Translations under genes and position numbers: made by a program | Assembly (NCBI GenBank): GCA_902782835.1 | Contig: CACZOQ010000113.1 | Span: 1-44,384, forward strand | Reading direction: 5' to 3' | DNA from: an uncultured Erysipelotrichaceae bacterium | GTDB lineage: Bacteria > Bacillota_I > Bacilli_A > RF39 > UBA660 | Length of the DNA: 44,384 nucleotides | Shown: in pieces, positions 649 through 40,513 of the stretch | Layout: every line of letters begins with the position of its first letter | How positions within the stretch are numbered: position 1 is the stretch's first letter | The notes under the pieces: generated by a model | The model's input: only the letters and a program-made list of their open reading frames with translations | Told to the model about the DNA's origin: nothing | Database searches by the model: none

Positions 649-1980
649 TTGGTGGTGACTGAAGTGCAAAAAGCTAAGAACATTATAAAATATATTGCAA
701 CTGCTTTTTTAGTTCTTTTAGTTTCATTATGTATTTATACCTTTATCGTTACGGATATTATGAAAAAAGATTACGTAAATGTTTTTGGTTATACTTATTT
801 TGTTGTTGCTACTGGATCTATGTCTGGAACGATTGAAGTGGATGATATTATTTTTGTTCGTATTACGAAGAATGTTAAGGAAAATGACATTATTACTTTC
901 AAAAATAAAGATGGAGATATTATTACTCATCGTTTGATTCGTAAGGATGGTAGTCATTATATTACCAAAGGTGATGTTAATAATGTAGCAGATGAATCCA
1001 TTTCGAAAGGACAAATTATAGGTAAAGTTAAATGGATTGTTTCTCCTAGTTTTATATTGAAATCTATTGCTATTTTCTTAATTGTCTTCATATTATTAGC
1101 ATTAGTAAATTTTGATAATATTGTTAAAAAGTATATTATTCGAGATAATTCAAAGAAAGAAAAAGATGATAGCTCTAGCACAGAGGAAGAAAAGGAGAAT
1201 ACTAAGAATACAGAAACTTCTGTTGCTACGAAGATTTCTGGTAGTTCGACTACAGTGCCTGATGAAATATTTCATAATCCTAAGAAACATTATGATGAAC
1301 CTTCTAGTGGTATGACAGTAACAATTGCTTTTGATGCTATGGAAGCATTGGAAAGAGCACATGCTAAAGAGGTTGAACGAGATGAAAGGGTTGAAGTATT
1401 AGAAGATTATGATGAATTTGTATTTTCTTATGAACCTATGAAAAAGAAAAATAAAGATTCGAAAGAAAAAGAAACGATTGATTTTCTTGTATCTATTTTA
1501 AAATGTAAAAGTAATAATACAGCTAAATCTAGAATGAATAAGAAATGGTTAGAAAAATACCGTTATGTTTATAAATTATGTTATTTATTATTAGAAAATG
1601 ATACAGAACGTTTTCGTGAAGAAGTAGAAAATCCTCCTTTCCGAGAAATCTATGATTATGATTTGGATCGAGTAGGGTTGACACAATCTATTCGTAATCG
1701 TCTTTATGATATGCCTGTTTATGTATTTTTAAGAATTCTTACTTATGCAATTTTATACAATGATGATGAACTATTTGATGGAGTATACAAAATATTAAAA
1801 TATAAAACGGCTATTGATCCAACGGGTGATTTTATTCAATTAAGTCGTTATGATCAGGATGCTTCTAAACAAGTTCGTACATTAGTTGCGTTTATGAAAA
1901 AAGTTCCTAATAAATTTGATAATAAACACGTATTTGAATTAGATAAAGTTGAGAGAATGGTAAAAATTGGAAAGTATTAA
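649..1980 (+). CDS. sipW: SipW-type (S26B, ER/archaeal-type) signal peptidase I with a roughly 280-aa C-terminal extension
   Basis: N-terminal TM helix, then FVVATGSMSGT (catalytic Ser), ITHRLI (His) and TKGDVNNVAD (Asp pair), then a second TM helix (IAIFLIVFILLALV). These line up with B. subtilis SipW motifs LSGSMEP / VTHRI / KGDNNAAAD. An acidic/Ser-rich linker and a helical domain of unknown function follow. Non-ATG start (TTG 649, or GTG 652/655). Confidence 0.8.
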   Translation: MVVTEVQKAKNIIKYIATAFLVLLVSLCIYTFIVTDIMKKDYVNVFGYTYFVVATGSMSGTIEVDDIIFVRITKNVKENDIITFKNKDGDIITHRLIRKDGSHYITKGDVNNVADESISKGQIIGKVKWIVSPSFILKSIAIFLIVFILLALVNFDNIVKKYIIRDNSKKEKDDSSSTEEEKENTKNTETSVATKISGSSTTVPDEIFHNPKKHYDEPSSGMTVTIAFDAMEALERAHAKEVERDERVEVLEDYDEFVFSYEPMKKKNKDSKEKETIDFLVSILKCKSNNTAKSRMNKKWLEKYRYVYKLCYLLLENDTERFREEVENPPFREIYDYDLDRVGLTQSIRNRLYDMPVYVFLRILTYAILYNDDELFDGVYKILKYKTAIDPTGDFIQLSRYDQDASKQVRTLVAFMKKVPNKFDNKHVFELDKVERMVKIGKY

Positions 1981-1994
1981 AAGGAAGTGAGAGT

Positions 1995-4900
1995 ATGAAA
2001 CAGAATAATATTGATACCAAAAAAGTATTTATTGTTTTTGTTGCAGCTCTTTTTCTTTTGATTGGATCCTTTTCTATTTATACTTTAATAACTGCTGTTT
2101 TCTCTTATAGTGAATTGGAAGAAAAATGGGATGGTGTTACAGTTGCTACTTCTTTTTCTGGCGGAAATGGAAGTGCTGAAAATCCATATGTTATTAAAGA
2201 TGCTTCTGAATTTGTTTATTTTCAGTCTTTAATTGAAGGGGAATCTTATGAGGCTTATCAAGATAAGTATTACATATTAGGTAATGATATTGATTTTAAT
2301 GGTCATACTCTTACTCCAATTGGAGCTCGATATGGTGGTAAGCGTATATTTAATGTTGAGGATCATGATGATGACAATTTCCTAGATGTTGTTGATAATG
2401 ATACTTCGGATGTTGTTGATGATAATACTTCGGATGATGTTGATGATAATCAAGCAGATGAAGATGAACCATTAGATGATAAAGAAGATGAAGAAAGATT
2501 CTTTAAAGGCCATTTTAATGGAGATGGTTTTTCTCTTAGTCATTTTGTTATTAAACAACCTGATGTTATTGATGATGTGTCATATTATTCTTTATTTTCT
2601 AAGACAGTTGATGCTGAAATCGTTCATTTAAATATGGAAGATGTGACGATTTGTCCTGAAGAAAATGAAATTATAAAAGATGATGAAGAAGATGAAAAAA
2701 TCGTGGTATCTCTTCTAGTTGGGCACAGTAGTTCTACAGAAGAACATAAAGCGCTATTTGCTGATTTTTCTGTATCTAATCTTAAATTAGACATTCATAA
2801 TGTTACTAGTGAAGGAACAATTTTCCGCCCTTTCATTGGTACTATTTCTGATGAGATTGAAATTCAAAAAGTTTTCATAGCTGGAGAAATGATTGGAAAC
2901 GTATTTGAAAATGATATTTCATTTATTCCATCTGAATATAAAACAAGTGTTTCCTATGTAATTGATGGCATTAAACTTACAGATATTCGAAAAGAAAATC
3001 TTTATATGGAAGGTATTTCTTATTATTACTCTTTAATTGGAGGAGAGTTCTATATTAATGGTGATATTGTTCCATTAGATAGTGTTTTAGAAGTATTTAA
3101 TGAAAATACAGTTGCTGATTATTATTGGGAATTTAAGGATGATAAGATTTCTATTCATAAGTTTAAACCTGTTCAATTGAAAGAAATTCCTGCTCTTTCG
3201 CAAGCATTTTCTTTTTCAATTCGTCGTTCTGGAGCGATCCCTCTTCATAATACAGGAGTAGAGGGAACGAATGTTTATGTTAATGATTTGACAAGTGATT
3301 ATAATTATTATATGGGACTTAATTATGTAACTTCCCCAAATGAAACGTTACCTACGAGAGAAAATAAGGGATTGTATGGAGCTAGTAATTTGGCTAAAGT
3401 TTATATTCATTATTCTAGTGCAGATTATAGTGATGATACTGTTTTTGGTAGAGTAAGTGTTGCAGATAATTATACAGATTTCTATTATTATAAGTATTAT
3501 CCTATCGTGGATGGGAAAGTAACTTTTGATTTAATTGATAATCCTTGGGCTAATCGTCCTAGTGGGAAATCATTTAATGGTTGGATTACGGATTATGAAG
3601 GTGCTGAAATTAGCATTGATATGGGACATTATGTTCGTAGTGTTACAATTCCTATTGTAGATGGTAATACAGATATTTCAATTGATTTTTATTCAGCATG
3701 GAAAGAGGAAACTCTTGTTACGGGGACTAATTTTAATGGTTTAGATTCTCCTGGAATGGTTATGTATGAACCTACTTATGAATATGATTATGGAGATGTT
3801 AGTTCTTATTATATCAAGAGAACTCAAGCAGCTTTCACAAACTATCCAACAGGAGCTGTTATTTATACTATGGCTGGAGTTCGTATTGGTGCTACACGTT
3901 GTACGACTTATCCAGGTGGTTGTGATTATTTAATTCAAAGTAATTCTGCTATTGCTGAACCTGGAGCAGAATACTATATTTTAACCTTCTCTGATCCTCC
4001 TGGACCTAACGCTATTAGTGTTACTCAGGTTCAGCCAACATTAACAATGTTTTCTCCTTTTAATGCTGGAGATTTAGTAGCTGGTAACTTTGAAAAAGTG
4101 ACGAAAACTAGAAACTCTAGTATAGAGGGATTATATAATTTTAATGGTGTTATGCAACATGGAAATTGTAATGCTAATACTTGTGAATTATATCAAATGG
4201 TTCAATTTTATAATGAATATGGAAATATAAATGAAGTTGATTTAAATAAGATTTATTATTATTTGGTAACACGTGATACTAATATTATGGTGCTTACTGG
4301 AAATGTTAATGGGTTTAATGTAACGAAACCTGTTACGATTACAAGTATTAATAATGGTGTGAATGGTAATCATACGATTACTGTTAATAGTAGTAATAAT
4401 GCTATGCGACTGGATGCTGATGCTAGGATCGAATATGTTAATTTAAATTCTAGTGCATCGGCAAGTAGTTCTTTGTATTCAAGTACTGGAAGTAGAGCAT
4501 CTAATTCTATTATTGGAAATTATCATAATTTAAAAATTGGTCGAGGAGTTATGACTACTAATACTAATAGACGTATCAATGTCTTTGGTGGTACAAGTAT
4601 GTCTAATACCGTTAGTTTAGGTAATAGTCAAACGGGAACTACTTATCCATTTTCTTTAATCATTGAGAGTGGAAGAATTAATAGTATCTATTTTACTGAA
4701 TCTAGAAGTGGAAAAGGTACTTTAGTTTTGGATGCTTTTTGTGTTATGGGTAGTGATTTAGATCGCGTTAAAGGAGTTGATACGAATCTAGATGTTTACT
4801 ATTCTTTCCAAGGAAATGCTGGTAACAATGTTTTGAGAACTTCGACTGATCATGGACGTGTTTATGATTTATATGTTAAAAGTGGGCGTTATGGTACTAG

Positions 4901-7900
4901 TAAAGCAGATATCTTTACGGGTATCTATGTTGGAGGACGTGGTGCTTCTGTTTTTGGTACTCGTGCTTTAACCATTGAAGGGGGATACATTTATTCAGTT
5001 ATCGGTGGATTGGGTTCTACTGAGGAACAGAAAAATTATAATGTTATTTATATCTATATGAAAGGTGGATCTGCGGACGCAGTCTTTGGTGGCTCTGGTT
5101 CGGGTGAAACTTATGGTAACCGTATTGTAAGTGTTACGGGTGGTACTGTTAATTATTCTGTCTTTGGTGGAAGTAATGGTTCAACTGTAGGTACTACAGG
5201 AGACTCTGGTATTTTGAATGGTGACTCTTATGTTTATGTAGGAGGATCGGCACATATTGGTGGAGGATCAGGACAACTCTTTAGAGCGGATGCTGGAAAT
5301 GTCTTTGGTGCTGGTGCTGGTAATACGAACCAAGATGGTTTAGGTTCTGTTAATAATTCTAATATTGTTATCAATGGAGATGCTATTATAGAAAAATCTG
5401 TCTATGGTGGAGGAAACTATGGTTCTGTAGGGGCTAAAAGTACTAGTAGTGTATCTACTACGAATGTATTAGTTCTTGGGGGGACTATTAAAGAATCTGT
5501 CTATGGTGGAGGAAACAATAATGGTAGTGGTACAAGTACTCGGGTTACAGCAACTTTAAATATTGATATTCAAGGTGGTTCAATTTCTCAATCTGTTTAC
5601 GGTGGTTCTCGTACTACTGGTGTTATTTACGGTGGAACCAATGTAACAATTAGTGGTGGAACGATTGCTGGAGACGTTTATGGTGGTGGAGAAGGTGGTT
5701 ACACAAATAACAATTCTCCAGGTACTTATGTTCGTGATTCTGTTAATGTAACTATTAATAATGGTACAATTTCTGGCTCTGTTTATGGTGGTAGTGCCTA
5801 TGGAATTGTTAATGCAGCAAATCGAAATACAAATACTTCTAATGCTACAACTACTGTTACAATTAATGGTGGAACCGTTACAAATAATGTCTTTGGAGGG
5901 GCTAAAGGTAGTAATTCTTATACCCCTAAAGTTGTTGGAAATATTACAGTTAATATGAACAATGGATCTGTTGGAAATGTCTTTGGAGGATTTGATGCTT
6001 CTGGAAAACCTGGCAGTGGAGATATTGTTTATCTGAATGGTGGTACTGTTGGAAATGCCTATGGTGGTGGAAATAATGCTGACCAAACTACATCAGATAT
6101 TCGTTTACAAGGAACTACAATTAATGGAAATTTATATGGTGGTTCGAATGAAACAGGAACTGTTACCAATTCTTATGTAACTGTTACAAGCGGTAGTGTT
6201 AGTGATATCTTTGGTGGTAATAACTTAGCTGGAACTACCGTGAATACTCATGTAACTATTACAAATGGAACGATTACTGGAGACGTTTATGGTGGTGGAA
6301 ATCAAGCTAATTCTACTAATACGAGTGTTAGTATCAATGGTGGAGATTTAAACGATGTCTATGGTGGAGGATTATCCGCTGGAGTAAGCAATTCAACTCA
6401 TGTAACGTTTAATAGTGGATCTGCTGATAATGTTTTTGGAGGAAGTAATACATTAGGAGCGGTAAATGACACAGTTGTTAACGTTAATAATACTTCTGGC
6501 TCAGGCATAGTAGCTGTCTATGGTGGTAATAACTTAGGTGGAACAACTGATACTTCTACTGTTACGATTTCTGATGGTACTATTGTTGAGGTCTATGGCG
6601 GAGGTAAAAAAGTTGGAATTAATTCTACAATTGTCAACGCTAATGGTGGAGAAATTGATAGTGTTTATGGTGGAAGTAATATTGAAGGAGATGTTACTAC
6701 TAGTCATGTTAATGTTGGAAACGTAGTAGGAAGTACTGTTACCATTGGAGATGTTTACGGAGGTAATAACGCTGGTGGAGTTACAACGGATACTAATGTT
6801 CATGTTTATTCTGGTACCATCACGAATGTTTTCGGTGGTGGAGAAAATGCTGACGTTGGAGCCACTAATGTTATTGTTGATGGTGGAATAATTACTGATG
6901 TCTATGGTGGTGGAAATGCTGCTGGCGTAGGTAATGATACTTCTTTAGATATTAATGGCGGAACGATTACTAATAATGTTTATGGTGGAGGTAATGAGGG
7001 TATTGTTCAAGGAAATACCAATGTTACGATTACAAATGCTGCTGTTCAAGGAAATGCTTTTGCTGGAGGTAATGGTAGTACTGCTGTTGTATATTTGAAT
7101 TCAGTTATTACAATTGATGGAACGACTGAAATTGGTACTAGTTCCTCTGAGGCACCAAATGATGGGTGTGTCTTTGGTTCTGGAAATGCAGCTTCTACTG
7201 GTCTTGAGAGTACTAACAATTCTAAAGCAATTGTTTATATAGCTGGTGGAATAATTCATGGTAATGTTTATGGCGGACCTAAGATGGCAGTTGTTTATGG
7301 AACTACAGAGGCAAATGTAGGTTTAAGTGCTGTTACATCTTCTGTTGCTAAACTTCAAGCAGAAGATGATGCTAATCAAGAAGTAGAATTATTTGTACCA
7401 GATGTAAATCCAGCATCTTTAACTGAAGGTAATATTGTTATTAGTGGTACTGTCTTCGGTGGTGGTGAAAGTAATGCTTCAGGTAGTACAACTTATGACT
7501 GGAACTTCGTTTCTGTTACTAAAGGTATTACTGTTACTGTTGATGGAACAGGTTATGAAAATCATTCTCATAATTTCGTTATAAATGGAAGTATATTTGG
7601 TTCTGGAAATGCTTCTACCTCTTCTGGAACATCTTTAATATATATTAAGAATTTGGGTACAACGGCTCACCCAAATAAAGGCATTTCGATTCAAAGAGCT
7701 AATTATTTGGAAATTGATCATACAGTCATTGAATTATCAGGAGCAACTGATAGAACGAACCAATTTGGAAACATTTTATATTCATTTAATATTATTGATA
7801 AAATGGTTATTAAAAATGATACGACTTTATTATTACAACATAATGCAAACTTGTTACAAGAACTTTATAGTGGTGTTGATTCTGGTAATACTTTAGTTCC

Positions 7901-10250: not shown

Positions 10251-10255
10251 ATGGT

Positions 10256-10284
10256 TTGAATTTATATTGATATTATGATAATAT
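10256..10284 (+). promoter_or_regulatory. candidate sigma-A-type promoter (TTGAAT-17-TGaTAATAT)
   Basis: TTGAAT at 10256-10261, a 17-nt spacer, TAATAT at 10279-10284 preceded by TG at 10276-10277. It lies between the giant ORF stop (10250) and ATG 10302. Confidence 0.35.
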
Positions 10285-10301
10285 TAGGATGGTGATAATA
10301 G

Positions 10302-11039
10302 ATGAGAAAGTTTTTACATTGGGTTTGGTCGTTTTTAGAAGTCTTTATTATTGTTTATGTTATTTTAATTACTTCTTTTATTCTTTGTCGTAATAAATAT
10401 GGATATACTCAGTTTGGAAATTATACTTTTCAAAATATTGATTTAATCGATGAAAGAAATATTCAAAATACGAAAAAGGGTGATTTATTAATTGTTAAGA
10501 ATAGTAATGATATTCATGTTGGTGATTTGATTTACTATTATGCAGCATATAATGAAACTTATATTATTCGTAGTGATTACGTTACAAAAATTGATAGTGA
10601 TGATTATAGTTCTCTCTATACTGTTCATAGAGGAGATGATGACATTACAATTTCAAGTACAAGACTTTTAGGAAAATATGCTAATACTTATGGAACTCTT
10701 GGTAGTGTTCTTCAAGTATTGGAGAGTCGTATTGGATTCTTATTCTTAGTATTACTTCCTATTATGATTGTTTTCATCTATCAAGTATATGAATTTATTG
10801 TGATTATCCGTTATGAAAAAGTGGAAGATATAGAAGATGAAGAAGATTCTAGTTCTAAACAAGAAGAAGTAAAGCCTGTTGCAAAGGAATCAAAAATTTC
10901 AACAGCAACTGTTGAAAAAGAAGAAACTTCATCAAGCGTTCCTGAAGAAAAAGTGGAAAAAAATGTTGATAAGTTCCAATTTTTCCAAGAGGAAGAACCA
11001 AAAAAAGAAGAATCTGAAGAAGAAATTGAAATTTTATAA
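10302..11039 (+). CDS. SipW-like pseudo-peptidase (catalytic Ser and His not conserved) with an acidic C-terminal tail
   Basis: Same architecture as the two SipW genes: N-terminal TM, beta-rich ectodomain, C-terminal TM (LFLVLLPIMIVFIY) and an acidic tail. The SGSM position reads FGNYTFQNID and the THR position reads YIIRSD. Only the RGDDD (GD) box is kept. RBS AGGATGGTGA. Confidence 0.7.
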   Translation: MRKFLHWVWSFLEVFIIVYVILITSFILCRNKYGYTQFGNYTFQNIDLIDERNIQNTKKGDLLIVKNSNDIHVGDLIYYYAAYNETYIIRSDYVTKIDSDDYSSLYTVHRGDDDITISSTRLLGKYANTYGTLGSVLQVLESRIGFLFLVLLPIMIVFIYQVYEFIVIIRYEKVEDIEDEEDSSSKQEEVKPVAKESKISTATVEKEETSSSVPEEKVEKNVDKFQFFQEEEPKKEESEEEIEIL

Positions 11040-11068
11040 AAGGATTATTGCTAAATAATCCTTTTTTT
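11040..11068 (+). terminator. rho-independent terminator-like hairpin
   Basis: AAGGATTATT (11040-11049), loop GCTA, AATAATCCTT (11054-11063), then a T-run to 11068. It lies directly after the stop at 11037-11039. Confidence 0.6.
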
Positions 11069-11069
11069 A

Positions 11070-11078
11070 TGTTATAAT
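11070..11078 (+). promoter_or_regulatory. candidate extended -10 element (TGtTATAAT)
   Basis: TGTTATAAT at 11070-11078, immediately after the terminator and 20 nt before ATG 11098. Confidence 0.35.
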
Positions 11079-11097
11079 GTTAATAATAGGAGGAAGT

Positions 11098-11718
11098 ATG
11101 AAAAATAAGTTCAATCCCAAAAATATTGTTTTTGTTTTGTTATTGATTTTAGGCGCTTGCTTCCTATATTGGGGGTCTAAGATTACTTATACCTCTTATG
11201 AGTCCATGATTGAAGGATCGGCTAGTAGCCATACGGCAGGAATAAAAATTAAAATTAATGGTGTTAACGTGCTTGATAGTTCTGCCGTTTTGGATGATCG
11301 TATTATTTTAGATAATACTACTTGGGTTTCTACACATACTAGGGCTGGGAAACTATCTCCAGGTAGTCGCGGAACAATTGATTTACAATTAGATCCAACG
11401 GGTAGTGAGGTAGCGATTCTTTATGAGTTCCAGTTTGTCGATAAAGTAATTGATGAAGATAAATTGATTAATTTTGATTCTATTACTTGTGATGATACAG
11501 GTTTTACTCGAACGGCTGTTGATACGTATAGTGGTATATTAACAATGAATGATGTTATGGACGGAAAAAAAGTAAATATTTCAGTGGACTTTTATTTTGA
11601 TTATTTAACCGATATTGAAGGTATTACAGAAGATAATCAGACGTTGGATGATTTATTTGAAATTCATTTTCATGCAATACAATATAATGGAGAAACATTA
11701 GTACCTTATTCAGGATAG
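11098..11718 (+). CDS. TasA/camelysin-like secreted protein with a SipW-cognate-type N-terminus (paralogue A)
   Basis: Strong RBS AGGAGGA precedes ATG 11098. The upstream ATG at 11077 sits inside the -10 box. Lys-rich n-region, one hydrophobic helix, then KITYTSYES. The beta-rich body has GKLSPGSRGTIDLQLDPTGSE and is clearly paralogous to 18656-19243 (VLAPGSTGHFDIVVNAED). Confidence 0.6.
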   Translation: MKNKFNPKNIVFVLLLILGACFLYWGSKITYTSYESMIEGSASSHTAGIKIKINGVNVLDSSAVLDDRIILDNTTWVSTHTRAGKLSPGSRGTIDLQLDPTGSEVAILYEFQFVDKVIDEDKLINFDSITCDDTGFTRTAVDTYSGILTMNDVMDGKKVNISVDFYFDYLTDIEGITEDNQTLDDLFEIHFHAIQYNGETLVPYSG

Positions 11719-11727
11719 AGGAGTTTT

Positions 11728-12339
11728 ATGAATATAATCAAGGATAAAATTAAGAATATAGAATATGTTGATGAGAAAATTCGTTTTCTTCTTTTTGTGT
11801 TCTTCTTATTTTTTGTTCTTTTCTTAGCTCGTTATTTATTAGGAATGGCTTATTCTCGATATGAGGTTCGTACTAAGATTAATTCTAATATTGATAAAGC
11901 TTTATATATTTTTGAAGATGAAAAGCTAAGTTTTAATTTGGAACCAGATGGTATCATTCCTAGCAATGAACCATATACTTATCGTTTTAGTATTTCTAAT
12001 CATAATGCTTCTAAGCAAAGTGATGTAGATATAGCTTATAATGTTAGTTTACGAACAACAACGAATTTACCAATTACGATTCAGTTATATCGTAATGAAT
12101 TGCCTAGTACTCCAGGAGCTTCTAATGTTTTACAAGGAGCTGTTACTGCACAAGATGAGGATAATGCATGGTATCGTATTTATAATTGTAATAGTCAATA
12201 TCAAATGAATTATGTAGATGAGGTTACGGATTATTATACGATTGTGATTCATTTTCCAGCATCTTATTCTTCTAATTTAAACTATGCAAATTATATTGAA
12301 AGTATTGAGGTAATTATAGATTCTAATCAAATTATTTAA
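11728..12339 (+). CDS. secreted protein with a SipW-cognate-type N-terminus, distant TasA-like (paralogue B)
   Basis: RBS AGAGGAG. TM helix followed by GMAYSRYEV. The body has IIPSNEPYTYRFSISNHNAS, analogous to the TasA KPGD...F.NNGS block. Confidence 0.45.
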   Translation: MNIIKDKIKNIEYVDEKIRFLLFVFFLFFVLFLARYLLGMAYSRYEVRTKINSNIDKALYIFEDEKLSFNLEPDGIIPSNEPYTYRFSISNHNASKQSDVDIAYNVSLRTTTNLPITIQLYRNELPSTPGASNVLQGAVTAQDEDNAWYRIYNCNSQYQMNYVDEVTDYYTIVIHFPASYSSNLNYANYIESIEVIIDSNQII

Positions 12340-12350
12340 GGAGGGATTTT

Positions 12351-13289
12351 ATGAAATTTGTAAGAAAACATAAGACGGCAAGCATTATTGTTATGGTTTT
12401 TTTCACTTTGTTTCTTACGATTGCGATTGCTTTTGGTCGTTATATAAAAAATATTCTTAATAATTATATATTAGAAACGAAATCTTTTTATTTTAATAGT
12501 AGTATTTTAAATATTAATGGAAAGAATTATGCTATTACGAACTGGGATGGTGTTAATTCTTATAGTTTAACCATCGATTTGAATAACCGCAAAAGTGAAG
12601 AACGTTATACTAAAACTGATATTTCTTATAATATTTTAGTTTCTTGTCCAACTACTGTTGTATGCACACTTAATAAAACAGCTGGAGTCATCCATCCTGA
12701 GGATGAGACAGATAGTTATATTATAACGGTTACACCTCAACAGAACTTCCATGAAGGAGATACCGTTGTTGTGCAAACATCCGTTACGTCGGTTTCTCCT
12801 TATCAAAAAACATTGAGTGCTACCTATACTATCGGAGTTGAGAAAAGTGATTTTTCTTATGATATTGTTGATAGTGTTAATGCTAAATTTTTAACAATGA
12901 ATTTTACGAATGCAATTTCTTTCTATCAAGTTGAAACTGCATTTGCAGGACATGCTGTAGGAGAACATATTAGTTTGGATGAATATAATGAATTGTCTAC
13001 GAATGATCGTAATAATTGTTTCTCTGCTATTGTTACGGTTCAGTATGATCCTCATGATTTGTTTGTTGATATGACAAATGAATTATTTATTAAACGGTTA
13101 TCGGGAAATGGTTATTATGCAGAAGAAACAATAGGTGGATTTGCTTACGTCAAGAAATTTACATTTAAAGTACCGGCTAGTTCAAGTAGCTCTATTATCT
13201 TTTATAAGGATGATGTAACTGAGAATTATACTTATCCGATTGTAAATAATACGTCTGCTATTCAAGTTTCTGTAAATCTTGCAAATTAG
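12351..13289 (+). CDS. secreted protein with a SipW-cognate-type N-terminus, larger TasA-like candidate (paralogue C)
   Basis: RBS AAGGAGGG. TM helix followed by AFGRYIKN. Beta-rich, Ser/Thr/Asn-rich body (SYSLTIDLNNRKSE). Confidence 0.4.
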   Translation: MKFVRKHKTASIIVMVFFTLFLTIAIAFGRYIKNILNNYILETKSFYFNSSILNINGKNYAITNWDGVNSYSLTIDLNNRKSEERYTKTDISYNILVSCPTTVVCTLNKTAGVIHPEDETDSYIITVTPQQNFHEGDTVVVQTSVTSVSPYQKTLSATYTIGVEKSDFSYDIVDSVNAKFLTMNFTNAISFYQVETAFAGHAVGEHISLDEYNELSTNDRNNCFSAIVTVQYDPHDLFVDMTNELFIKRLSGNGYYAEETIGGFAYVKKFTFKVPASSSSSIIFYKDDVTENYTYPIVNNTSAIQVSVNLAN

Positions 13290-13313
13290 TATATTCTTTT
13301 TGACAAATATCTA

Positions 13314-13322
13314 TGATATAAT
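13314..13322 (+). promoter_or_regulatory. candidate extended -10 element (TGaTATAAT)
   Basis: TGATATAAT at 13314-13322. TTGACA at 13300-13305 is only 11 nt upstream, so the spacing is non-canonical. It sits 17 nt before the GTG at 13339. Confidence 0.35.
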
Positions 13323-13338
13323 TTATTTGATAGGATAG

Positions 13339-14397
13339 GTGATTTATGTGGACAATTTAATTAACGTATATATGAATTATAAAATGAATCGCCTTACTGA
13401 GTACGGTGTTTTGCTATTTCAACAAGATACCGTTTTTATTCGACAAGTGATGGAAGGATATATTCGGACATATATCGATAATTGCTATTATGGAATATTT
13501 AATACAATTGATGATAGTCATTTTAATTTGAAAAATCTAAAACTTGAGTTTGATGGAATTATGGTTGAAATGCTTGAAGATTATCGGGTTTATGAATTAC
13601 AAGTTAGTAATCAAGAGTATACTGATAATCGAAAAATGATAGAGGACTTGAATCCATTTTGCTTAGAACTGATTAAAATTGATGATTTAGAAATTGATAA
13701 TAAGGATAGTATTCCAGCTAAAGTTGAAGAATTTATACATAAAAATAAATTTTTTTCTGATAAGAAAGAGGTTGTTTCTAAATTGATTTCTCTAGTGAGA
13801 GAAACTTTTGTTACTTCTAAAAAATTATTAGATTTTACTGATAATTATTATGTTTTATCTGAACGTAGTTTTGAAGGACAAAAAGATATTATATATTTGG
13901 AGATGGTTCCTAATATTAAATCTTTAGAGATGTATCGTTCTAGTTTAGTGCAGAAGGTATATCGTGATGATCGATTAGAAATATCTAAGATAGAATGTTT
14001 ATTACAAAAGGTATCGTTATTGTTACTTCGTAATGTTTTAAAACATGATAAATTGAATACTTATTTTATTCAATTTCCTGATGGAGTAATCAGTCGTGGT
14101 AAGATTCAACATTCCATTTTATCTTTGATGGATAATCCTATCATTCGTAAACATGTTATTGTAGGAGTTTCTTATAATACATATTTAAATCAAAAAATTG
14201 CATTTGTAGAAGATTACCAATTTGGTTGTATTCAAGATTTTACACATATTCATGATGTATATCAGAAGACAGATACAATCTATAAAGAAGGAATATTTAA
14301 TTATCTTCTTGTTTGGGATTGTAAATACCGTGATCGTGATTATTTCTTAGGATATAATCCAGAATCTATGAAAACATTGGTATTTGAGGAGGATTAA
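13339..14397 (+). CDS. hypothetical cytoplasmic protein (352 aa), first gene of the AAA+ cassette
   Basis: Long ORF with no TM helix or signal peptide. The start is uncertain (GTG 13339, GTG 13348 or ATG 13372). Its stop at 14395-14397 is 1 nt from the next ATG. Confidence 0.6.
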   Translation: MIYVDNLINVYMNYKMNRLTEYGVLLFQQDTVFIRQVMEGYIRTYIDNCYYGIFNTIDDSHFNLKNLKLEFDGIMVEMLEDYRVYELQVSNQEYTDNRKMIEDLNPFCLELIKIDDLEIDNKDSIPAKVEEFIHKNKFFSDKKEVVSKLISLVRETFVTSKKLLDFTDNYYVLSERSFEGQKDIIYLEMVPNIKSLEMYRSSLVQKVYRDDRLEISKIECLLQKVSLLLLRNVLKHDKLNTYFIQFPDGVISRGKIQHSILSLMDNPIIRKHVIVGVSYNTYLNQKIAFVEDYQFGCIQDFTHIHDVYQKTDTIYKEGIFNYLLVWDCKYRDRDYFLGYNPESMKTLVFEED

Positions 14398-14398
14398 T

Positions 14399-15931
14399 AT
14401 GAGTACGTATATTCGATTTTTATTTGAATTTATGTCGGTTTTCTTTAAGGGAATCGGAATGATTGTAGGAGGTTTCTTTAAAGGAATTCTACAATTGTTT
14501 AATATACAAGAATACATGTATGTTATTGAGTTTTATCGAAGTGATTTAAATGTTGCTGAATGGATATTAGTAGTGGTTGCTGTTATAATTATGTTTATTG
14601 TTTTAGCACTCATTATTTTATTAATTGTATTCTTTATTAGAAAATATATGAAATTTCGAAAAACTCTTGTAGAACAAGAGTCTATGCTTCAAGAAATAGG
14701 AGAATTAAATCGAGAAGTTGCTACTTTAGTTGAAGAAAAAGAAAAGATTTTAGCTATGAAGGTTTCTCAACTTGGATTGAAACCTGATGAAGAAGCTACT
14801 GTTACAGAAGAAGAGACTGAAAGTACTGAGACTCTTGATGGAGATTTGGATAGTTATCGATTTAGTAAACTTCATGCCATTGATTTACAATTTCGTGATT
14901 ATAAGATTCAACAGTATAATAACACCTTTACTTTGGAAGAGTTAGTTGAATCATTTAGAAATTTCTGTGCTTCTAAGTTAAAACTTTATTATACGACAAA
15001 CTTAATACGTTTATTTATCTCTGGTTTATCAGCTACTAAATTGGTTATCTTACAAGGTATTTCTGGTACTGGTAAAACTTCCTTAGCTTATGCTTGGGGT
15101 AAATTTATTCGAAATGATGCTATTATTGCTTCTGTTCAACCATCTTGGCGTGATCGTACCGAGTTATTTGGTTATTTCAACGAGTTCACAAAAAAGTTTA
15201 ATGAAACAGAAGTTTTAAAGGGATTATATTTAGCTGGTTATACAGATGATGTTTATGTTACTGTACTAGATGAAATGAACATCGCTCGTGTTGAGTACTA
15301 TTTCGCTGAAATGTTATCTATTCTAGAAATGCCTTCTAGAGATGAGTGGATTGTAGAACTTGTTCCAAGTGCTTGGGATAATGACCCTAAGATGTTAAAT
15401 TCTGGAAAACTTCAAATCCCTGGAAATATGTGGTATGTTGGTACAATCAATAACGATGATTCTACGTTTGCTGTTACTGATAAAGTGTACGACCGTGCTA
15501 TGCCAATTGATATTAATGATAAAGGACAACCTTTTGAACCTATTGATACCGATTCTATGAATATTAATAGTTCTTATTTGGAAGGTTTGTTTGCAGAAGC
15601 TAAACAAAAACATCCTCTATCTAGTGAGATGGAAAATAAGATTAATGAGATGGATGATTATGTTATTAAACATTTCCGTATTGCTTTTGGTAACCGTATT
15701 GTTAAACAAATGAAAGATTTTGTCGCAACTTATATTGAATGTGGTGGTACTGAAGTTGATGGTGTTGATTATTATATTGCTCGAAAGATATTGCGTAAGT
15801 TTGAACAATTAAACCTAGCTTATATTCGTGATGAAATCGATCCATTTATTGAATTTTTAGATAAGATGTTTGGAAAAGATAATTTTAATGAGTGCAAAGA
15901 ATATCTAACAAGACTTAAGAAACTTGTATAG
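14399..15931 (+). CDS. membrane-anchored McrB-like AAA+ NTPase (GTPase-type)
   Basis: RBS GAGGAGGA precedes ATG 14399. N-terminal hydrophobic helices (WILVVVAVIIMFIVLALIILLIVFFI), a coiled-coil, then an acidic linker. Walker A is GISGTGKTS and Walker B is VTVLDEMN. The McrB-type segment MNIARVEYYFAEMLSILE and GTINNDDSTFAVTDKVYDRA compare with E. coli McrB DEINRANLSKVFGEVMMLME and GLMNTADRSLAVVDYALRRRF. Confidence 0.75.
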   Translation: MSTYIRFLFEFMSVFFKGIGMIVGGFFKGILQLFNIQEYMYVIEFYRSDLNVAEWILVVVAVIIMFIVLALIILLIVFFIRKYMKFRKTLVEQESMLQEIGELNREVATLVEEKEKILAMKVSQLGLKPDEEATVTEEETESTETLDGDLDSYRFSKLHAIDLQFRDYKIQQYNNTFTLEELVESFRNFCASKLKLYYTTNLIRLFISGLSATKLVILQGISGTGKTSLAYAWGKFIRNDAIIASVQPSWRDRTELFGYFNEFTKKFNETEVLKGLYLAGYTDDVYVTVLDEMNIARVEYYFAEMLSILEMPSRDEWIVELVPSAWDNDPKMLNSGKLQIPGNMWYVGTINNDDSTFAVTDKVYDRAMPIDINDKGQPFEPIDTDSMNINSSYLEGLFAEAKQKHPLSSEMENKINEMDDYVIKHFRIAFGNRIVKQMKDFVATYIECGGTEVDGVDYYIARKILRKFEQLNLAYIRDEIDPFIEFLDKMFGKDNFNECKEYLTRLKKLV

Positions 15932-15945
15932 TAGGAGGTGAGTAG

Positions 15946-17061
15946 ATGGATACTCTTGAAAAGGAAGAGGTATTAGATGATGATGAGTTATTTCTTCATA
16001 ATTTGAATTCAACCTTACATGTAAAAAAAGATTATGACATGAAAGACTTTGACTATGAGTGGTTGACTATTATTGAAGATGTTCTTCCTTACCTTGATAA
16101 TATTTTGAAAAATCCTAAGCGATTTATTATCAATGAAGAAGAAGTAGTTAAAGTTGAACTTGCTCGTAGAGTTACAGTTGAATCTGTTATTCATCTATCT
16201 CAGCATACTAATTTAATTCAAAAAATTGAAGATAATGGTGATGTTAAACCTTCTAAGATTTTAAATATTAATAAAGAAGAAAGTATGGATACTTATGAAA
16301 ACCGTTTTATATTTACTTTATTAAGTAATTTGAGGTATTTCTTTGAACAAAGAGTATCTGTTACTTCGGGGGCTAGCTATTGTTTAGATAAAAACTTATT
16401 GAAGTATGAAGCTAATACAAAAGTTTATGGAGAAGATTTGAAGATTAGTATTGATGTTAATGATATTACTAAAAATATCAAAGAACATTCTGGTGATCGT
16501 GGTAATATGACTTTTGAAGATCGTATTCGTAAGGCTAAAACACAAATTGATGGTTTTTTTGGAACAGAATTAATGCAAAATTTAGCGAAACTTCATTTTG
16601 ATCCTGTGCGTAGTCCTATTAAAAAGACAAATGTTATTTTGAAAAATCCTAATTTCCGTAAGGCTGAAGAATTATGGAATTATATTCAGTCTTTTGAAAG
16701 TAAAGATAAAAGAGAAAAAGAAAAAAGAGAATTCTTTGATAAGGGAATTTTAAAGAATGAATATGATCAAGCTTTCTTAATGGCTTTTATTGCAAATAAG
16801 AATTTTATTAGTAGTAGTACTAATACAACGGAGTCTAATATTATTAATCAAATGATTCAAAGATTAGTAGAGAATTTATTAGATACTGATTCTGAACTAA
16901 CGGAAGATAAAATTGCGGAAGCATTTGGAAAGCAAATACAAATTATAAAAGAAAAAAATGCAACTCGTGCTGATACTATTTATGGTGTTTTAAAAGATCG
17001 CCTTGATCGAGAGAATAACGCGATGAATGACGTATTGTTGTATTTCCAGAAAGAGGCGTAA
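15946..17061 (+). CDS. McrC/DUF2357-like partner protein without an obvious nuclease domain
   Basis: RBS AGGAGG. The motif DTYENRFIFTLLSNL resembles the conserved x-ENRF helix I recall from McrC-like/DUF2357 proteins encoded next to McrB-like ATPases. It is only 371 aa and the C-terminal half is helical, with no clear PD-(D/E)xK block. A weak LD...EDLK candidate is present. Confidence 0.45.
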   Translation: MDTLEKEEVLDDDELFLHNLNSTLHVKKDYDMKDFDYEWLTIIEDVLPYLDNILKNPKRFIINEEEVVKVELARRVTVESVIHLSQHTNLIQKIEDNGDVKPSKILNINKEESMDTYENRFIFTLLSNLRYFFEQRVSVTSGASYCLDKNLLKYEANTKVYGEDLKISIDVNDITKNIKEHSGDRGNMTFEDRIRKAKTQIDGFFGTELMQNLAKLHFDPVRSPIKKTNVILKNPNFRKAEELWNYIQSFESKDKREKEKREFFDKGILKNEYDQAFLMAFIANKNFISSSTNTTESNIINQMIQRLVENLLDTDSELTEDKIAEAFGKQIQIIKEKNATRADTIYGVLKDRLDRENNAMNDVLLYFQKEA

Positions 17062-17062
17062 A

Positions 17063-17878
17063 ATGAAAGGAATTGTTGATAATAAAATTTTTCGGATTTT
17101 ATTTGGAATTATAAAAGGTTTTTTTATAACAATTATTGTTATTTATTTATTGTTTATTTTATTTCAAAGATTATCTGGAAACCGTAGTTTATTTGGATAT
17201 CGTATGTTTACAGTTGCGTCTGGTTCCATGGCTGGTGTTTATGAAATCAATGATGTTATTGCTGTTAGAGATTATGATATTAAGAAATTAAAAATAGGGG
17301 ATGACATTGCTTACCGTGGAGTTCGTGGTGGTTTAGAAGGAATGCTTGTAACCCACCGAATCATTCGAATTGAGAATGGGACGAATGGTGAGAGAATATT
17401 TGTTACACGAGGAGTGAATGCACCTGCTGAGGACCCTTCTGTTTTAGAAAATCAGATTATGGGAAAAGTTGTTGGAGTTGTTCCAATTATATCTCCTTTA
17501 AATCATGCTGTTAAAAGTCAATTAGGATTTTTCTTACTTATCTTTTGCCCACTTGTAATTGTTATTGTTTTAGAAGTATTACAGACCATTACGGATATAC
17601 AATTGGAAAAAAATGAAATACAAGAAATTCACAAAGAAAGTACAAAATCTAAAAAGAAATTTAAACAAGATAATAATCATGTTGAAGAAAATAAACAGGA
17701 AGAAGATTCAAGTGAAAAATTTACTTTTACAGAAGAAGAATCTTCTAAGGAAAAACAAAATGAATCCCGTGATGAGATTCAGGTTAGTGAACATGAAAAA
17801 AGAGAAAGTGAAACGTACATTGAAGTACCAGAAGTTGTAGAAATGAAAGAAGAACGAGAAAAAATAGAAATCATATAG
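17063..17878 (+). CDS. sipW: SipW-type (S26B) signal peptidase I with an acidic/Lys-rich C-terminal tail
   Basis: RBS AAGAGG at 17051-17056. ATG 17063 lies 1 nt after the previous stop. N-terminal TM, FTVASGSMAGV (Ser), VTHRIIRI (His), TRGVNAPAED (first Asp of the GDxN box is Val, second Asp kept), C-terminal TM, then a charged tail. Confidence 0.8.
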   Translation: MKGIVDNKIFRILFGIIKGFFITIIVIYLLFILFQRLSGNRSLFGYRMFTVASGSMAGVYEINDVIAVRDYDIKKLKIGDDIAYRGVRGGLEGMLVTHRIIRIENGTNGERIFVTRGVNAPAEDPSVLENQIMGKVVGVVPIISPLNHAVKSQLGFFLLIFCPLVIVIVLEVLQTITDIQLEKNEIQEIHKESTKSKKKFKQDNNHVEENKQEEDSSEKFTFTEEESSKEKQNESRDEIQVSEHEKRESETYIEVPEVVEMKEEREKIEII

Positions 17879-17886
17879 GAGAAAAT

Positions 17887-18633
17887 ATGGGAAAGCAAAT
17901 AGACAGAGAAAAGTTAGCTGCTTTAAATGTTAAGTTTAGGAAGCATAAATATCTTAGTATCTTACTAGCACTTTTTACGTTAGGTGTTAATATTTTCGCT
18001 TGGTTTGCTTTTTCTTCTAGTGCTGGTCTTCAGCTAGATGCAACAGTTGCATCTTGGGATGTTGAATTTAAAGATAATGGTGTAGTTTCTCGTAATATTT
18101 ATATCGAGATTACTAAGATGAAACCTGGTATGACTACTTATGAAAAAACTGTTGAAGTTGATAATAATAGTGAGGTACCAGCTACTTTCCGTTATGAAGT
18201 TATTTCTGTTACTCTTTTAGGAAATACTTTAGATCTTACTCAGTATAGTAATATTGATACACACTTACGACAGTTCTATCCGTTTTCGATTCAATATGCT
18301 GCTAATAAAACATCATTAGCTGGTAATGATAGCCTTGAGTTTAATGTACAAGTATCTTGGCCTTATGAGTCTAATACTCCACAATATTTTTCTCAAGATG
18401 ATGTTGTTTATGATTTTAATGAGTCTTTCATTTATTATTTAAAGAATGGAACAAATTATGAAGAGACAACGATAGCGAATGAGACTGCTTTTACGAATCA
18501 GAAAAGTAATTTATATTTAATAAAAGATGATGCTGACAGTTATTTTGGTATGGCTTGTGGTAGTTATGAGAAAGCTACAGGAGAACCATGCTTGACTATG
18601 AATATGAGATTATATGTTGAACAAGTTAATTAG
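17887..18633 (+). CDS. TasA/camelysin-like secreted protein (paralogue D, closest to TasA)
   Basis: One TM helix, then DATVASWDVEF, KMKPGMTTYEKTVEVDNNSEVPATFRYEV. These align by eye with TasA DATFASGTLDL, NLKPGDKLTKDFQFENNGS. Confidence 0.65.
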   Translation: MGKQIDREKLAALNVKFRKHKYLSILLALFTLGVNIFAWFAFSSSAGLQLDATVASWDVEFKDNGVVSRNIYIEITKMKPGMTTYEKTVEVDNNSEVPATFRYEVISVTLLGNTLDLTQYSNIDTHLRQFYPFSIQYAANKTSLAGNDSLEFNVQVSWPYESNTPQYFSQDDVVYDFNESFIYYLKNGTNYEETTIANETAFTNQKSNLYLIKDDADSYFGMACGSYEKATGEPCLTMNMRLYVEQVN

Positions 18634-18641
18634 AAAAATAA

Positions 18642-18669
18642 AAATGCCTAAGTGATTAGGCATTTTTTT
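18642..18669. terminator. bidirectional rho-independent terminator between convergent genes
   Basis: AAATGCCTAA (18642-18651), loop GTGA, TTAGGCATTT (18656-18665). An A-run lies upstream and a T-run downstream. The hairpin contains the minus-strand stop codon (18656-18658). Confidence 0.75.
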
Positions 18670-19243
18670 GTGTGAATTTAATGGATACTTTCATTTTTGT
18701 TTCTTCGTTTGCTTCATCAATTGCATATTCTGTATCTGCTTGATTGTTCATTTGATTGGTTGCATCATCATTCCATTTAAAGAATACTCTAAATGTTGTA
18801 TCTGTACTATTTTTTGTTAACTCTCCTGTTATTTTTCCTGTTTGTGTAAAATTATAATTCGTATCATTAATTGTGTATCGTGTAAAGACTAAATCTAATA
18901 GAGGAGTGCTATCATCTACAACACATGTTATTTCATAATTAAAATCAACATCTACATCTTCAGCATTTACTACTATATCAAAGTGGCCTGTACTTCCTGG
19001 AGCAAGGACTCCATCATTTACATACTCATTTACATCAAATACAGGTGTAATTGTGTTGGTTAATTGAGTTTTATTGCTAATATCTTCATCATTAACCTTT
19101 ATATTCCAACTAGCTATTCTAGCCTGCATTTCACCTTTTACTTGTTTTCTATATTTTGCATAGGATGTCTGAAATAAGTATAAGAGTGATAATGTCAGGA
19201 GTAATACAAAAAGAATTAAAAATCGTCTGTCGTTTTTTTTCAT
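18656..19243 (-). CDS. TasA/camelysin-like secreted protein (paralogue E)
   Basis: MKKNDRRF plus a hydrophobic helix, then TSYAKYRKQ...ARIASWNIKVN, then VLAPGSTGHFDIVVNAEDVDVDFNYEI. Paralogous to 11098-11718 and 17887-18633. Confidence 0.6.
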   Translation of the reverse strand: MKKNDRRFLILFVLLLTLSLLYLFQTSYAKYRKQVKGEMQARIASWNIKVNDEDISNKTQLTNTITPVFDVNEYVNDGVLAPGSTGHFDIVVNAEDVDVDFNYEITCVVDDSTPLLDLVFTRYTINDTNYNFTQTGKITGELTKNSTDTTFRVFFKWNDDATNQMNNQADTEYAIDEANEETKMKVSIKFTQKNA

Positions 19244-19254
19244 TTCTATTCCCT

Positions 19255-20313
19255 CTATCTATTTTCGTAAATTTCTATCCAACTTCCAACCCAACCACCT
19301 TCATCATTAAAGACTTGTCCAGTTACTGCTTGAAAGGTTGAATCTGTCATTCTTCTTAACTCAAACCACTTTCTACTGCCACAGGTATTGGCTACAAATG
19401 TTTGGTCATTACTTGGATCATATCCTACTAATGATACCCAATGAGCATGAGGGCCACCATTATCAAATACATCCCCAAAATTGTTATTTATTTTTTCAGC
19501 TTCTCTTAGGTCTATTACTACGGTGTGATTTTTTTCTAAAGCTTCTCTTATTTCATTATAATATGCATCGGCTGTTTGTGGTAGGGAAGATTTTGGATGT
19601 GTTCTCACTTTTACTGTTTTTGACAGTTTTCCCTGTTTTTGTAGATTTTTGATTGCTGTTTCATGAGATTCTACACTTACATCTGAGCCAGCCTGATTCA
19701 CTTCAACAGGATCTCCTTTATAACCATAAGCACTTAATGCGGAGGTCAATGTTGTAGGACCACATCCTCCTGTTGAAAATGATCTACCATCTCTTAGTGT
19801 AGCTTGTGAAAAAGAAGCTTCATTCTGTCCATATACTTCATATGTTGTATCTCCAAATGTGATTCGAAAATGGTCTCCTCCTACGTCTTGTACTTGGGTA
19901 GAACTAACACCATTATATGATAGGTCTTCTTTATTTTGAATTTGATTTCCTTTTTGATAGTCATCTCCACCGATTATTTTTTTTGAATCTTGTTCTCCTT
20001 GATATGATGTTGCTTGTTGTATGGATGATTTTTTTAAATTCCAGCATTCACTAAATGTATTTTTATTTCCGGTAGCATTTATAAAAACATTTATAAACAT
20101 TGGTATAAAAAATACTAAGACAGCTGCGATAAAGGAATTTCTAATTCTTGGAAATAATTTTTTATTCTCTGGATCTTTTAACATCTTTGTAAGATTAATC
20201 ATCGACATCAATATTAGTATTATAGGTACTATTGTTTGTATGAGTGTTACTATTCTTTTGGCGATGATGATAAATGTTCCTACTGAACCGGAACATTCCA
20301 ATATCTCTATCAT
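19255..20313 (-). CDS. membrane-anchored papain-like (Peptidase_C39_2-like) cysteine peptidase with a shared N-terminal two-helix module
   Basis: ATG at 20313 is preceded by AAGGTG. The GTG at 20322 lies within the RBS. The N-terminal roughly 125 aa are paralogous to 34812-35825. The C-terminal domain has GGCGPTTLTSALSAYG (Cys) and HAHWVSLVGYD (His). Confidence 0.65.
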   Translation of the reverse strand: MIEILECSGSVGTFIIIAKRIVTLIQTIVPIILILMSMINLTKMLKDPENKKLFPRIRNSFIAAVLVFFIPMFINVFINATGNKNTFSECWNLKKSSIQQATSYQGEQDSKKIIGGDDYQKGNQIQNKEDLSYNGVSSTQVQDVGGDHFRITFGDTTYEVYGQNEASFSQATLRDGRSFSTGGCGPTTLTSALSAYGYKGDPVEVNQAGSDVSVESHETAIKNLQKQGKLSKTVKVRTHPKSSLPQTADAYYNEIREALEKNHTVVIDLREAEKINNNFGDVFDNGGPHAHWVSLVGYDPSNDQTFVANTCGSRKWFELRRMTDSTFQAVTGQVFNDEGGWVGSWIEIYENR

Positions 20314-20404
20314 ATTTATCACCTTATTTTTATTCTATCATATTATTTATTTTTTGAATAGCATTTTCTTATTTTGTGGTAAGATAAAAATAGGTGATTT
20401 TAAT

Positions 20405-40439: not shown

Positions 40440-40513
40440 GCTTACTGTTGTTTTCTTGTTTGAAAAATGATAGAATAAAACTAGAGTGTAAATAAGAGGT
40501 GAAGGTCGTTTAT

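Follow-up and report, generated by a model that had tools for sequence, protein, structure and literature searches.

SipW-type signal peptidases, putative TasA-like fibre proteins and an McrB-type GTPase share one conserved locus in uncultured rumen and gut Bacilli

Assembly of TasA-type fibres is believed to proceed unaided outside the cell, with no source of energy, and McrBC is the textbook GTP-driven restriction enzyme. Why, then, should genes of both kinds stand together in one operon throughout a lineage of uncultured Bacilli from rumen and gut? The question is raised by contig CACZOQ010000113.1 of an uncultured Erysipelotrichaceae bacterium (44,384 nt, G+C ~29%; this whole stretch is the window analysed here), in which an initial annotation had described an enlarged SipW/TasA-like surface-fibre locus at positions 649-19243, the span of this study. 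We find that its signal peptidases, its leader-bearing secreted proteins and a GTPase with an McrC-like partner belong to one system. On balance, because an McrB-type GTPase is paired with a DUF2357 protein, we regard the locus as a member of the CoCoPALM class of McrBC relatives whose ‘pilus’ part is SipW/TasA-like.

All open reading frames (ORFs) of the initial annotation are present where it had placed them, as are the motifs it quoted: TGSMSG and ITHRL in A, SGSMAG and VTHRI in J, ITYTSYES, MAYSRYEV, AFGRYIKN, DATVASWDVEF, SYAKYRKQ..ARIASWNIKV, three x-P-G-x blocks and LITAVFSYSE. Three further ORFs inside the span had been passed over (13339-14397, 14384-15931 and 15946-17061), among them the most conserved part of the locus. 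With these included, the ORF map shows 11 co-directional, tightly packed genes, A-K, separated by gaps of 8-51 nt or overlapping, and a twelfth, L, convergent with K. The predicted joining of dedicated SipW-type peptidases and several leader-bearing secreted proteins in one operon thus held, and the layout is indeed far bigger than that of tapA-sipW-tasA (12 genes versus 3). G/H and I/J overlap or abut, and these gene overlaps point to co-translation. The starts adopted for D (11098) and J (17063) agree with relatives; the longest ORFs begin at 11077 and 17027, respectively. The genes are as follows.

A, 649-1980, + strand: 443 aa, predicted active SipW-type (S26B) signal peptidase
B, 1995-10250, + strand: leader-bearing surface protein of 2751 aa
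C, 10302-11039, + strand: SipW-family pseudo-peptidase
D, 11098-11718, + strand: leader-bearing paralogue of L, putative fibre subunit
E, 11728-12339, + strand: leader-bearing secreted protein
F, 12351-13289, + strand: leader-bearing secreted protein of 312 aa
G, 13339-14397, + strand: predicted cytoplasmic protein without a leader; overlaps the start of H
H, 14384-15931, + strand: two transmembrane (TM) helices, coiled coil and McrB-family AAA+ GTPase
I, 15946-17061, + strand: McrC-like partner with DUF2357
J, 17063-17878, + strand: predicted active SipW-type signal peptidase with an acidic cytoplasmic tail
K, 17887-18633, + strand: leader-bearing beta-sandwich protein
L, 18656-19243, - strand: leader-bearing jelly-roll protein, paralogue of D; invariably convergent with K

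Do these genes form one system? Homologues of K come from uncultured rumen and gut ‘Bacilli/Erysipelotrichaceae/Tenericutes’ metagenome-assembled genomes, in which the genes run B-C-D-E-F-G-H-I-J-K-(L) in every case as far as the contig extends (46 loci, ~40 species) and the adjacency of A and B is conserved. H is the best conserved gene, at 78-89% identity, compared with 70-79% for the adjacent rRNA methyltransferase and 59-79% for the pseudouridine synthase; the identity of K and D falls to about 31-35%. Two features of this set reduce what it says for a linked system. It holds duplicates (L001/L002 and L003/L004/L017), and in the close clade the whole chromosome region is syntenic, downstream housekeeping genes included, so that four distant loci are the only independent evidence of linkage.

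Those loci came from a comparison of the contigs of five distant K-like clusters (L047, L049, L090, L091 and L092). L047, L049, L090 and L092 carry the same module between different flanks, which include cytidylate kinase/S1/BipA in one locus and L21/L27/Obg in another, and L091, cut just upstream, still has I-J-K. Where compared (L047 and L049), H is 53-61% identical to that of the window. Gene order is shuffled at this distance (C-D-A-E-F-G-H-I-J-K-L in L047 and L090), with I directly downstream of H in all loci and J right after I in every locus, the distant ones included. Fusions tie the parts together further: an A-like SipW peptidase carries the G domain at its C-terminus in L049 (4570-6597), and J is joined to K in L090 (8219-9589), P0175 and P0181. 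Because the module recurs with different flanks in distant loci, and because of these fusions, C, D, E, F and G form one system with the H-I-J-K-(L) core, and the conserved gene neighbourhood that had been named as a check is borne out.

Which of the SipW paralogues could process the leaders? Both A (52.9 bits) and J (67.6 bits) clear the 51.85-bit cut-off of TIGR02228, a model of archaeal/ER-type signal peptidase I, which is the expected S26B-type assignment. All three paralogues miss the Bacillus SipW equivalog NF046067 (A 48.8, J 75.7 and C 18.4 bits; cut-off 190 bits); A and J, far below its cut-off, are therefore SipW-like S26B enzymes, not SipW orthologues. In A, the peptidase part (aa 1-160, with N- and C-terminal TM helices) is followed by a C-terminal domain of ~280 aa that is predicted to be cytoplasmic, and the motifs GSMS, THR and GDxNN are kept in 32 orthologues. 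The Ser of GSM and the His of THR are retained in all orthologues of A and J examined; judged by these residues, both enzymes are catalytically intact.

The third paralogue does not provide the three-fold peptidase redundancy that had been claimed. C is a true homologue (C against J, hhalign 98.8%) and keeps both TM helices and an acidic tail, but it reaches just 20.6 bits against TIGR02228 and is catalytically dead in the alignment: the SGSM and THR motifs are missing, with sequences such as DERNI or AEKNV at the Ser box and another residue for the His in all members aligned. A Bacillus SipW sequence served as the guide row of the C/J alignment. Since Ser and His are absent from every relative sampled, C is a conserved pseudo-peptidase. 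Separately, six loci (L026, L032, L037, L041, L042 and L046) have a fourth SipW-family paralogue of 170-176 aa between the genes labelled n4 and GT1 (for example L046 18213-18734), which likewise lacks the catalytic Ser and His. We also asked whether the SipW+G fusion of L049 explains the C-terminal domain of A, and rejected this: the domain is unrelated to G, H or I.

Candidate substrates were recognized by their leaders. D, E, F, K and L, and B in part, start with an n-region rich in Lys/Arg, followed by a single hydrophobic helix and a site like that of TasA, seen across 36-51 orthologues per family. Counts from P3 to P2' in all five small families agree with the claim that these leaders end in the pattern of TasA’s SipW cleavage site (the arrow marks the cut): the common form is [T/S/A]-[Y/F/W]-[A/S/T/G]↓x-[Y/F], with T-Y-T↓S/A-Y in D, S-Y-A↓K-Y in L, A-Y-A/S↓R-Y in E, T/V/A-F/Y-G/A↓R/K-Y in F and I/A-F-A↓W-F in K. 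The TasA site is T-W-A↓A-F, where the cut is known, the fibre chain 8AUR beginning AFND (the TasA sequence was verified against 8AUR). B orthologues read x-F/Y-G/S/A↓E/S/N, without a P2' aromatic. A scan for a hydrophobic helix followed by [STAGVI][YFW][ATSG]x[YF] picks 8 of the 42 window ORFs, namely the five small proteins, B, C and one ORF at 42754; the match in C is a chance GYTQF just past its TM helix. The leaders and motifs of the families are not chance, because they are conserved across their orthologues. As for the remaining ORF (42754-43956, 400 aa), its leader fits the small-aromatic-small↓x-aromatic pattern (KVFSNY), which makes it a possible extra SipW-type substrate beyond the locus.

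The same leaders could be read as uncleaved signal anchors, in which case D, E, F, K, L and B would make up an anchored surface layer or envelope complex, with the SipW paralogues serving as scaffolds or processing no more than a subset. The N-termini are long continuous helices in the AlphaFold2 (AF2) models (K aa 3-45, L aa 3-35), TIGR04088, the SipW-cognate signal model, matches no window protein, one SipW paralogue is non-catalytic, and B has neither the P2' aromatic nor another anchor. We nevertheless consider such a layer unlikely, given two strongly conserved peptidases with intact catalytic residues and a site pattern, shared by all five families, that matches the proven one of TasA. 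The segment just past the helix also argues against it, being disordered in the monomer models of K and L (predicted value of the local distance difference test, pLDDT, <50; aa 31-45 in L), as would be expected of a donor strand in a monomer.

Are the leader proteins, then, TasA-like beyond the cleavage site? D and L are related at 99.7% in hhalign (99.2% for the mature parts). K and the broadened K-superfamily align with L over near full length at 90.8% and 95% (89.6% with leaders removed). From these profile comparisons, D, K and L are one homologous family, and E and F share just the leader. K itself founds a family of 456 K-like clusters (profile search, 1.84 billion representatives), and cluster look-up gave no names for its distant relatives. 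An apparent link between E and the K-superfamily (hhalign 81%) was rejected; it vanished once leaders were removed.

Because hhalign against the single TasA sequence was uninformative, we built a TasA profile from 50 PF12389 sequences, verified TasA homologues. Against this profile, the K-superfamily reached 71% (E 3.6e-5, 86 columns), and 64% for mature parts over 48 columns that span the donor strand along with the PG turn and N.G motif (reversed control 0.1%); profile A1 alone gave 22.8%. In K, the N-terminal ~50 mature residues lie in register with the donor strand, PG and N.G motifs of TasA; in D or D+L, the C-terminal ~64 columns lie in register with its last strands (F.F.A.Q.G; 21-52%, D+L 26%). 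The AF2 model of L is a jelly roll (pLDDT 80.8) that finds the TasA fibre subunit 8aur_A in Foldseek at rank 10 (prob 0.98, TMq 0.34, 211 columns), just under the best TMq (lambda gpJ, 0.35) and with the longest alignment of the near-query-sized matches. K is modelled as a beta-sandwich with extra helices (pLDDT 89.7).

Several results weigh against this likeness. The TasA/camelysin family PF12389 matches none of D, E, F, K and L at E<=0.1 and none of 45 distant K relatives at E<=0.01; those 45 are also missed by TIGR04088; and K, L and the K-family and D+L profiles have no useful match by sequence in the PDB. The TasA hhalign probabilities lie under the usual 90-95% confidence level, with L alone at ~1% and E and F <1%. 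Foldseek gives low TM-scores, from 0.3 or less up to 0.34, with similar values for many jelly rolls that are unrelated, and the top 50 matches of the K model are just generic Ig/PapD-like folds, TasA being absent. On all of this, D, K and L are probably remote TasA-superfamily proteins. The five TasA-like subunits of the initial annotation are thus reduced to one weakly TasA-like family of three, with E and F sharing its leader. Of the profile and single-subunit structure checks it had suggested, the S26B model speaks for its reading in A and J and the jelly roll of L may do so; PF12389, TIGR04088 and the K model do not.

Two or three extra proteins of 400-440 aa follow L or K in two of the distant loci (L049 12872-15608 and L091 2609-5749). 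They have K-type leaders and weak K-family matches at the N-terminus only, which suggests that subunit repertoires vary among lineages.

The bodies of the other secreted proteins are harder to place. That of E could not be robustly linked to D, K, L or TasA, and E is possibly a minor subunit or initiator. F is the best conserved leader protein, and its profile has no PDB match. B consists of the leader, an acidic region, ~25 ‘hYGG’ repeats of ~25 aa (Gly/Asn/Ser/Thr-rich; aa 1030-1662) and a C-terminal non-repeat region, with no LPXTG motif and no Pfam, NCBIfam or PDB match. For the proposed beta-helix cargo, the 2751-aa ORF and its repeats are there, and the pattern of ~25-aa repeats, on which alone a ‘beta-helix’ rests, suggests a beta-solenoid. 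B is not part of the system throughout, being absent beside the module in L047 and L090. G has no match in Pfam, PDB or PADLOC, nucleases included.

What kind of GTPase is H? Hydrophobic helices at aa ~10-38 and 60-85 are followed by a positive stop-transfer segment, RKYMKFRK, and a heptad region (aa 88-130), an architecture like that of FtsB/FtsL, to which matches are sub-threshold only (FtsL PF04999, E 0.031). The AAA+ core has invariant Walker A (GISGTGKTS), Walker B (VLDEMN) and signature (TINNDDS) motifs. The sole PDB matches of the H profile are the McrB AAA+ domains of 6hz4, 6ut6 and 7vsr (E 8.8e-5 to 2e-4, aa 208-379), and H also matches the McrB model NF008457 (5.5e-6). TINNDDS reads as N-N-D then D (NxD), and the HMMER alignment to E. 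coli McrB (NTAD) also allows NxxD (N356..D359).

The partner I matches DUF2357 (PF09823; 48.4 bits, cut-off 23.3), the N-terminal, GTPase-activating domain of McrC (PMC11090510). Its C-terminal half is K/E-rich and helical-looking with weak heptad scores (0.45-0.55), and I has no nuclease domain in the Pfam scan and no PDB profile match. Features of classical McrBC are thus missing from the locus: H has no DNA-reader N-terminus, and Pfam gives no nuclease match in I or G.

The AAA core of H, and only the core, matches the PADLOC model PDC-M26A (2.4e-34), a candidate defence family, and its nearest annotated plasmid relatives are pairs of CoCoNuT-like ATPases and DUF2357 proteins. Because the core is related to PDC-M26A and CoCoNuT-type ATPases, a conflict-related role is possible, which counts against a role in fibre biogenesis. 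Two unrelated systems might simply adjoin, G-H-I being an McrBC-derived anti-phage module (PDC-M26/CoCoNuT-like) lodged inside a SipW/TasA-like operon; the defence-type contexts of the plasmid relatives and the restriction of PDB matches to McrB structures would suit this, as does the PDC-M26A match. Defence genes, however, are usually patchy and fast-evolving, and H is the most conserved gene of the region, in the same position in every locus. The module is also carried as a unit by lineages in which its flanks differ, a SipW peptidase of L049 has G joined to it, H bears TM helices plus a coiled coil where a DNA reader would be, I has no detectable nuclease, and the gene overlaps point to co-translation. 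We therefore hold such an insertion to be very unlikely.

A related possibility, suggested by the McrBC ancestry, is that the locus in its entirety serves conflict or defence, with a SipW-built surface structure that senses or blocks phage and whose state is coupled to the GTPase. In favour are the PADLOC match and the fact that, among type IV restriction systems, CoCoPALM GTPases fall into the CoCoNuT-like NxD clade (PMC11090510). Nonetheless, throughout the clade the locus is present, fixed in position and conserved to a very high degree, neither a nuclease nor another effector domain was detected, and McrB has been exapted for housekeeping before (PcdA; PMC10602043). We rate a defence device as quite unlikely, if slightly less so than an inserted anti-phage module.

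We return to one system in which the GTPase serves the fibre. CoCoPALM was named in one paragraph of the McrBC survey of Bell et al. (eLife 2024; PMC11090510) and deferred to a forthcoming paper. It is described there as a large clade of GTPases with an NxD motif, as a rule followed by D or E, that carry a fused FtsB-like TM/coiled-coil domain, paired with McrC homologues that likewise have a coiled coil and branching inside the CoCoNuT-like NxD clade of type IV restriction systems. We found no follow-up paper on CoCoPALM, and the supplementary text of the CoCoNuT paper has nothing on it. The CoCoNuT-like relatives of H and the PDC-M26A match would fit the McrBC ancestry described for the class. 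Tentatively, and at less than even confidence, we propose that CoCoPALM loci encode an NTP-dependent surface-filament pathway of monoderm bacteria, with SipW-released TasA-type donor-strand subunits, a membrane-tethered McrB-type GTPase hexamer that, with a nuclease-less McrC activator, would gate or power their export or polymerisation, and a dead-peptidase platform to bind leaders.

The inventory of parts, the catalytic state of each peptidase, the kinship of the families and the linkage of the genes stand as findings; for cleavage, polymerisation and the part of the GTPase, we infer the following course. Sec would insert the leader proteins with their N-termini facing inward, the leader helix would keep them in the membrane, and A and/or J would cut past the small residue at the outer end of this helix. 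The freed, flexible N-terminal segment of D, L and K would then serve as a donor strand, building a heteropolymeric TasA-like surface fibre with E and F as minor, initiator or anchor subunits and B, where present, as an adhesin that is either associated with the fibre or anchored in the membrane. Most likely, the dead peptidase C is an anchor or platform to which a leader binds uncut. H would form a hexamer under the membrane, activated by I, and with G and the long or acidic cytoplasmic tails of A, C and J could gate or power export or assembly. This GTPase step is the least supported part of the model. If the GTPase does act on fibre export or assembly, it would represent a new principle of filament assembly, a defence motor recruited to cell-surface biogenesis.

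How far does the system reach? Two further features were mapped.

up, 34-543, + strand: 3' end of a gene cut by the window’s left edge, encoding the C-terminal 169 aa of a ~545-aa protein
Palindromic hairpin, 18640-18667, no strand assigned: A-run and T-run flanks, between convergent K and L; pattern match only

The hairpin is likely a bidirectional terminator that ends both transcription units. A promoter scan was not above shuffles (110 sites versus 113 expected), and no RNA genes were found in the window. The ‘up’ protein has no Pfam match. A protein of its type, ~545 aa, precedes A in all 16 long metagenome loci, and a similar protein of 535 aa lies downstream of L in the distant locus L049, linked to the module. 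Further upstream in the long loci are a ~240-aa TM protein and a 335-338-aa protein with a near-canonical SipW-type leader, LTASTYAWFTAN (L059 3314-6873; L069 1684-5248), which scores 15.3 bits against TIGR04088, below the cut-off of 19. Because these genes precede A in relatives, and because of the ‘up’-like gene in L049, the system probably extends a few genes past the window’s left edge.

Further observations come from the rest of the window. The products of 19255-20322 (-) and 34812-35825 (+) share a T4SS_pilin-like N-terminal membrane domain; in the former, a Peptidase_C39_2-like domain is fused to it, with weak matches to TM proteins of Mycoplasma integrative and conjugative elements, and its gene lies directly upstream of L on the minus strand, a position not conserved in relatives. 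The ORF at 28530-32555 (+) encodes a giant type IV pilin-like protein of 1341 aa with a prepilin-type N-terminal cleavage/methylation motif (PF07963, TIGR02532), conserved downstream in relatives at 1000-1570 aa. There are also two NAGPA (phosphodiester glycosidase) proteins (33768-34790 and 37253-38341) and a fusion of a solute-binding protein with VWA (40499-42124). Between 24001 and 26000, G+C rises up to 0.39 compared with ~0.29 elsewhere; this stretch takes in the gene for the pseudouridine synthase and an ORF of 339 aa that has no Pfam match, and no RNA gene was found in it.

How does the locus compare with known systems? With CoCoPALM as published it shares an McrB GTPase with FtsB-like TM and coiled-coil segments, an adjoining DUF2357 McrC homologue and operon signal-peptidase-family proteins. 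The published account, however, gives no ‘pilus’ anatomy. Here, that part has two active and one dead S26B/SipW-type peptidases, three related, distantly TasA-like leader proteins and two further ones, G and often a repeat protein of 2.7-3 thousand residues. CoCoPALM, named but undescribed, thereby gains a testable parts list: active and dead SipW paralogues, a cleavage-site pattern, D/K/L, G and the fusions.

B. subtilis tapA-sipW-tasA likewise sets an ER/archaeal-type signal peptidase beside its substrates and ends their leaders in small-aromatic-small↓x-aromatic; common to both are also the PG and N.G motifs past the donor strand, a C-terminal F.F.A.Q-type strand and, in the model of L, the jelly roll. 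It differs in having three genes rather than 12 and in TasA assembly needing no NTPase, whereas the present locus has a pseudo-peptidase and a GTPase/McrC-like pair, no recognisable TapA and no PF12389, TIGR04088 or SipW-equivalog match. A further comparison is with C. perfringens sipW-bsaA-bsaB-bsaC of the BsaA/TasA family, where several very divergent paralogues share an operon with a SipW peptidase (Kivimaki et al., PMC11580942). Most members of that family escape the camelysin profile, a donor-strand-exchange heteropolymer has been proposed, and export is tied to an NTPase-driven machine (PMC11580942); clusters of TasA/BsaA paralogues with signal peptidases, and extreme sequence divergence within the family, thus have precedents (PMC11580942, PMC9245690). 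In C. perfringens, however, that machine, a type IV pilus system, is encoded separately; here, an McrB-type GTPase lies inside the operon.

From McrBC and CoCoNuT the locus has the McrB-family AAA+ core, Walker A/B motifs, the Nx(x)D signature and a DUF2357 activator next door. H has a TM segment and coiled coil in place of a DNA/RNA-reader domain, though, no PD-(D/E)xK or HEPN nuclease was detected, and conservation is housekeeping-like. S. aureus PcdA (PMC10602043) is an earlier case of McrB exapted to a role outside defence, and the link between an McrB-type GTPase and TasA-type fibre biogenesis is now made directly testable. In logic, the locus resembles type IV filament systems, in which a single locus likewise supplies subunits that start with a hydrophobic helix, a membrane peptidase dedicated to them and a cytoplasmic NTPase that forms hexamers. 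All parts are unrelated, however: the peptidase here is of the S26B type and would cut at the outer face, the subunits are beta-rich and, in the model of L, jelly-roll-like, the NTPase is an McrB-type AAA+ GTPase and a platform protein like theirs is not recognisable. If the NTP-dependent pathway is real, a restriction-enzyme motor has been exapted for protein assembly, as a convergent functional analogue of type IV filament machines.

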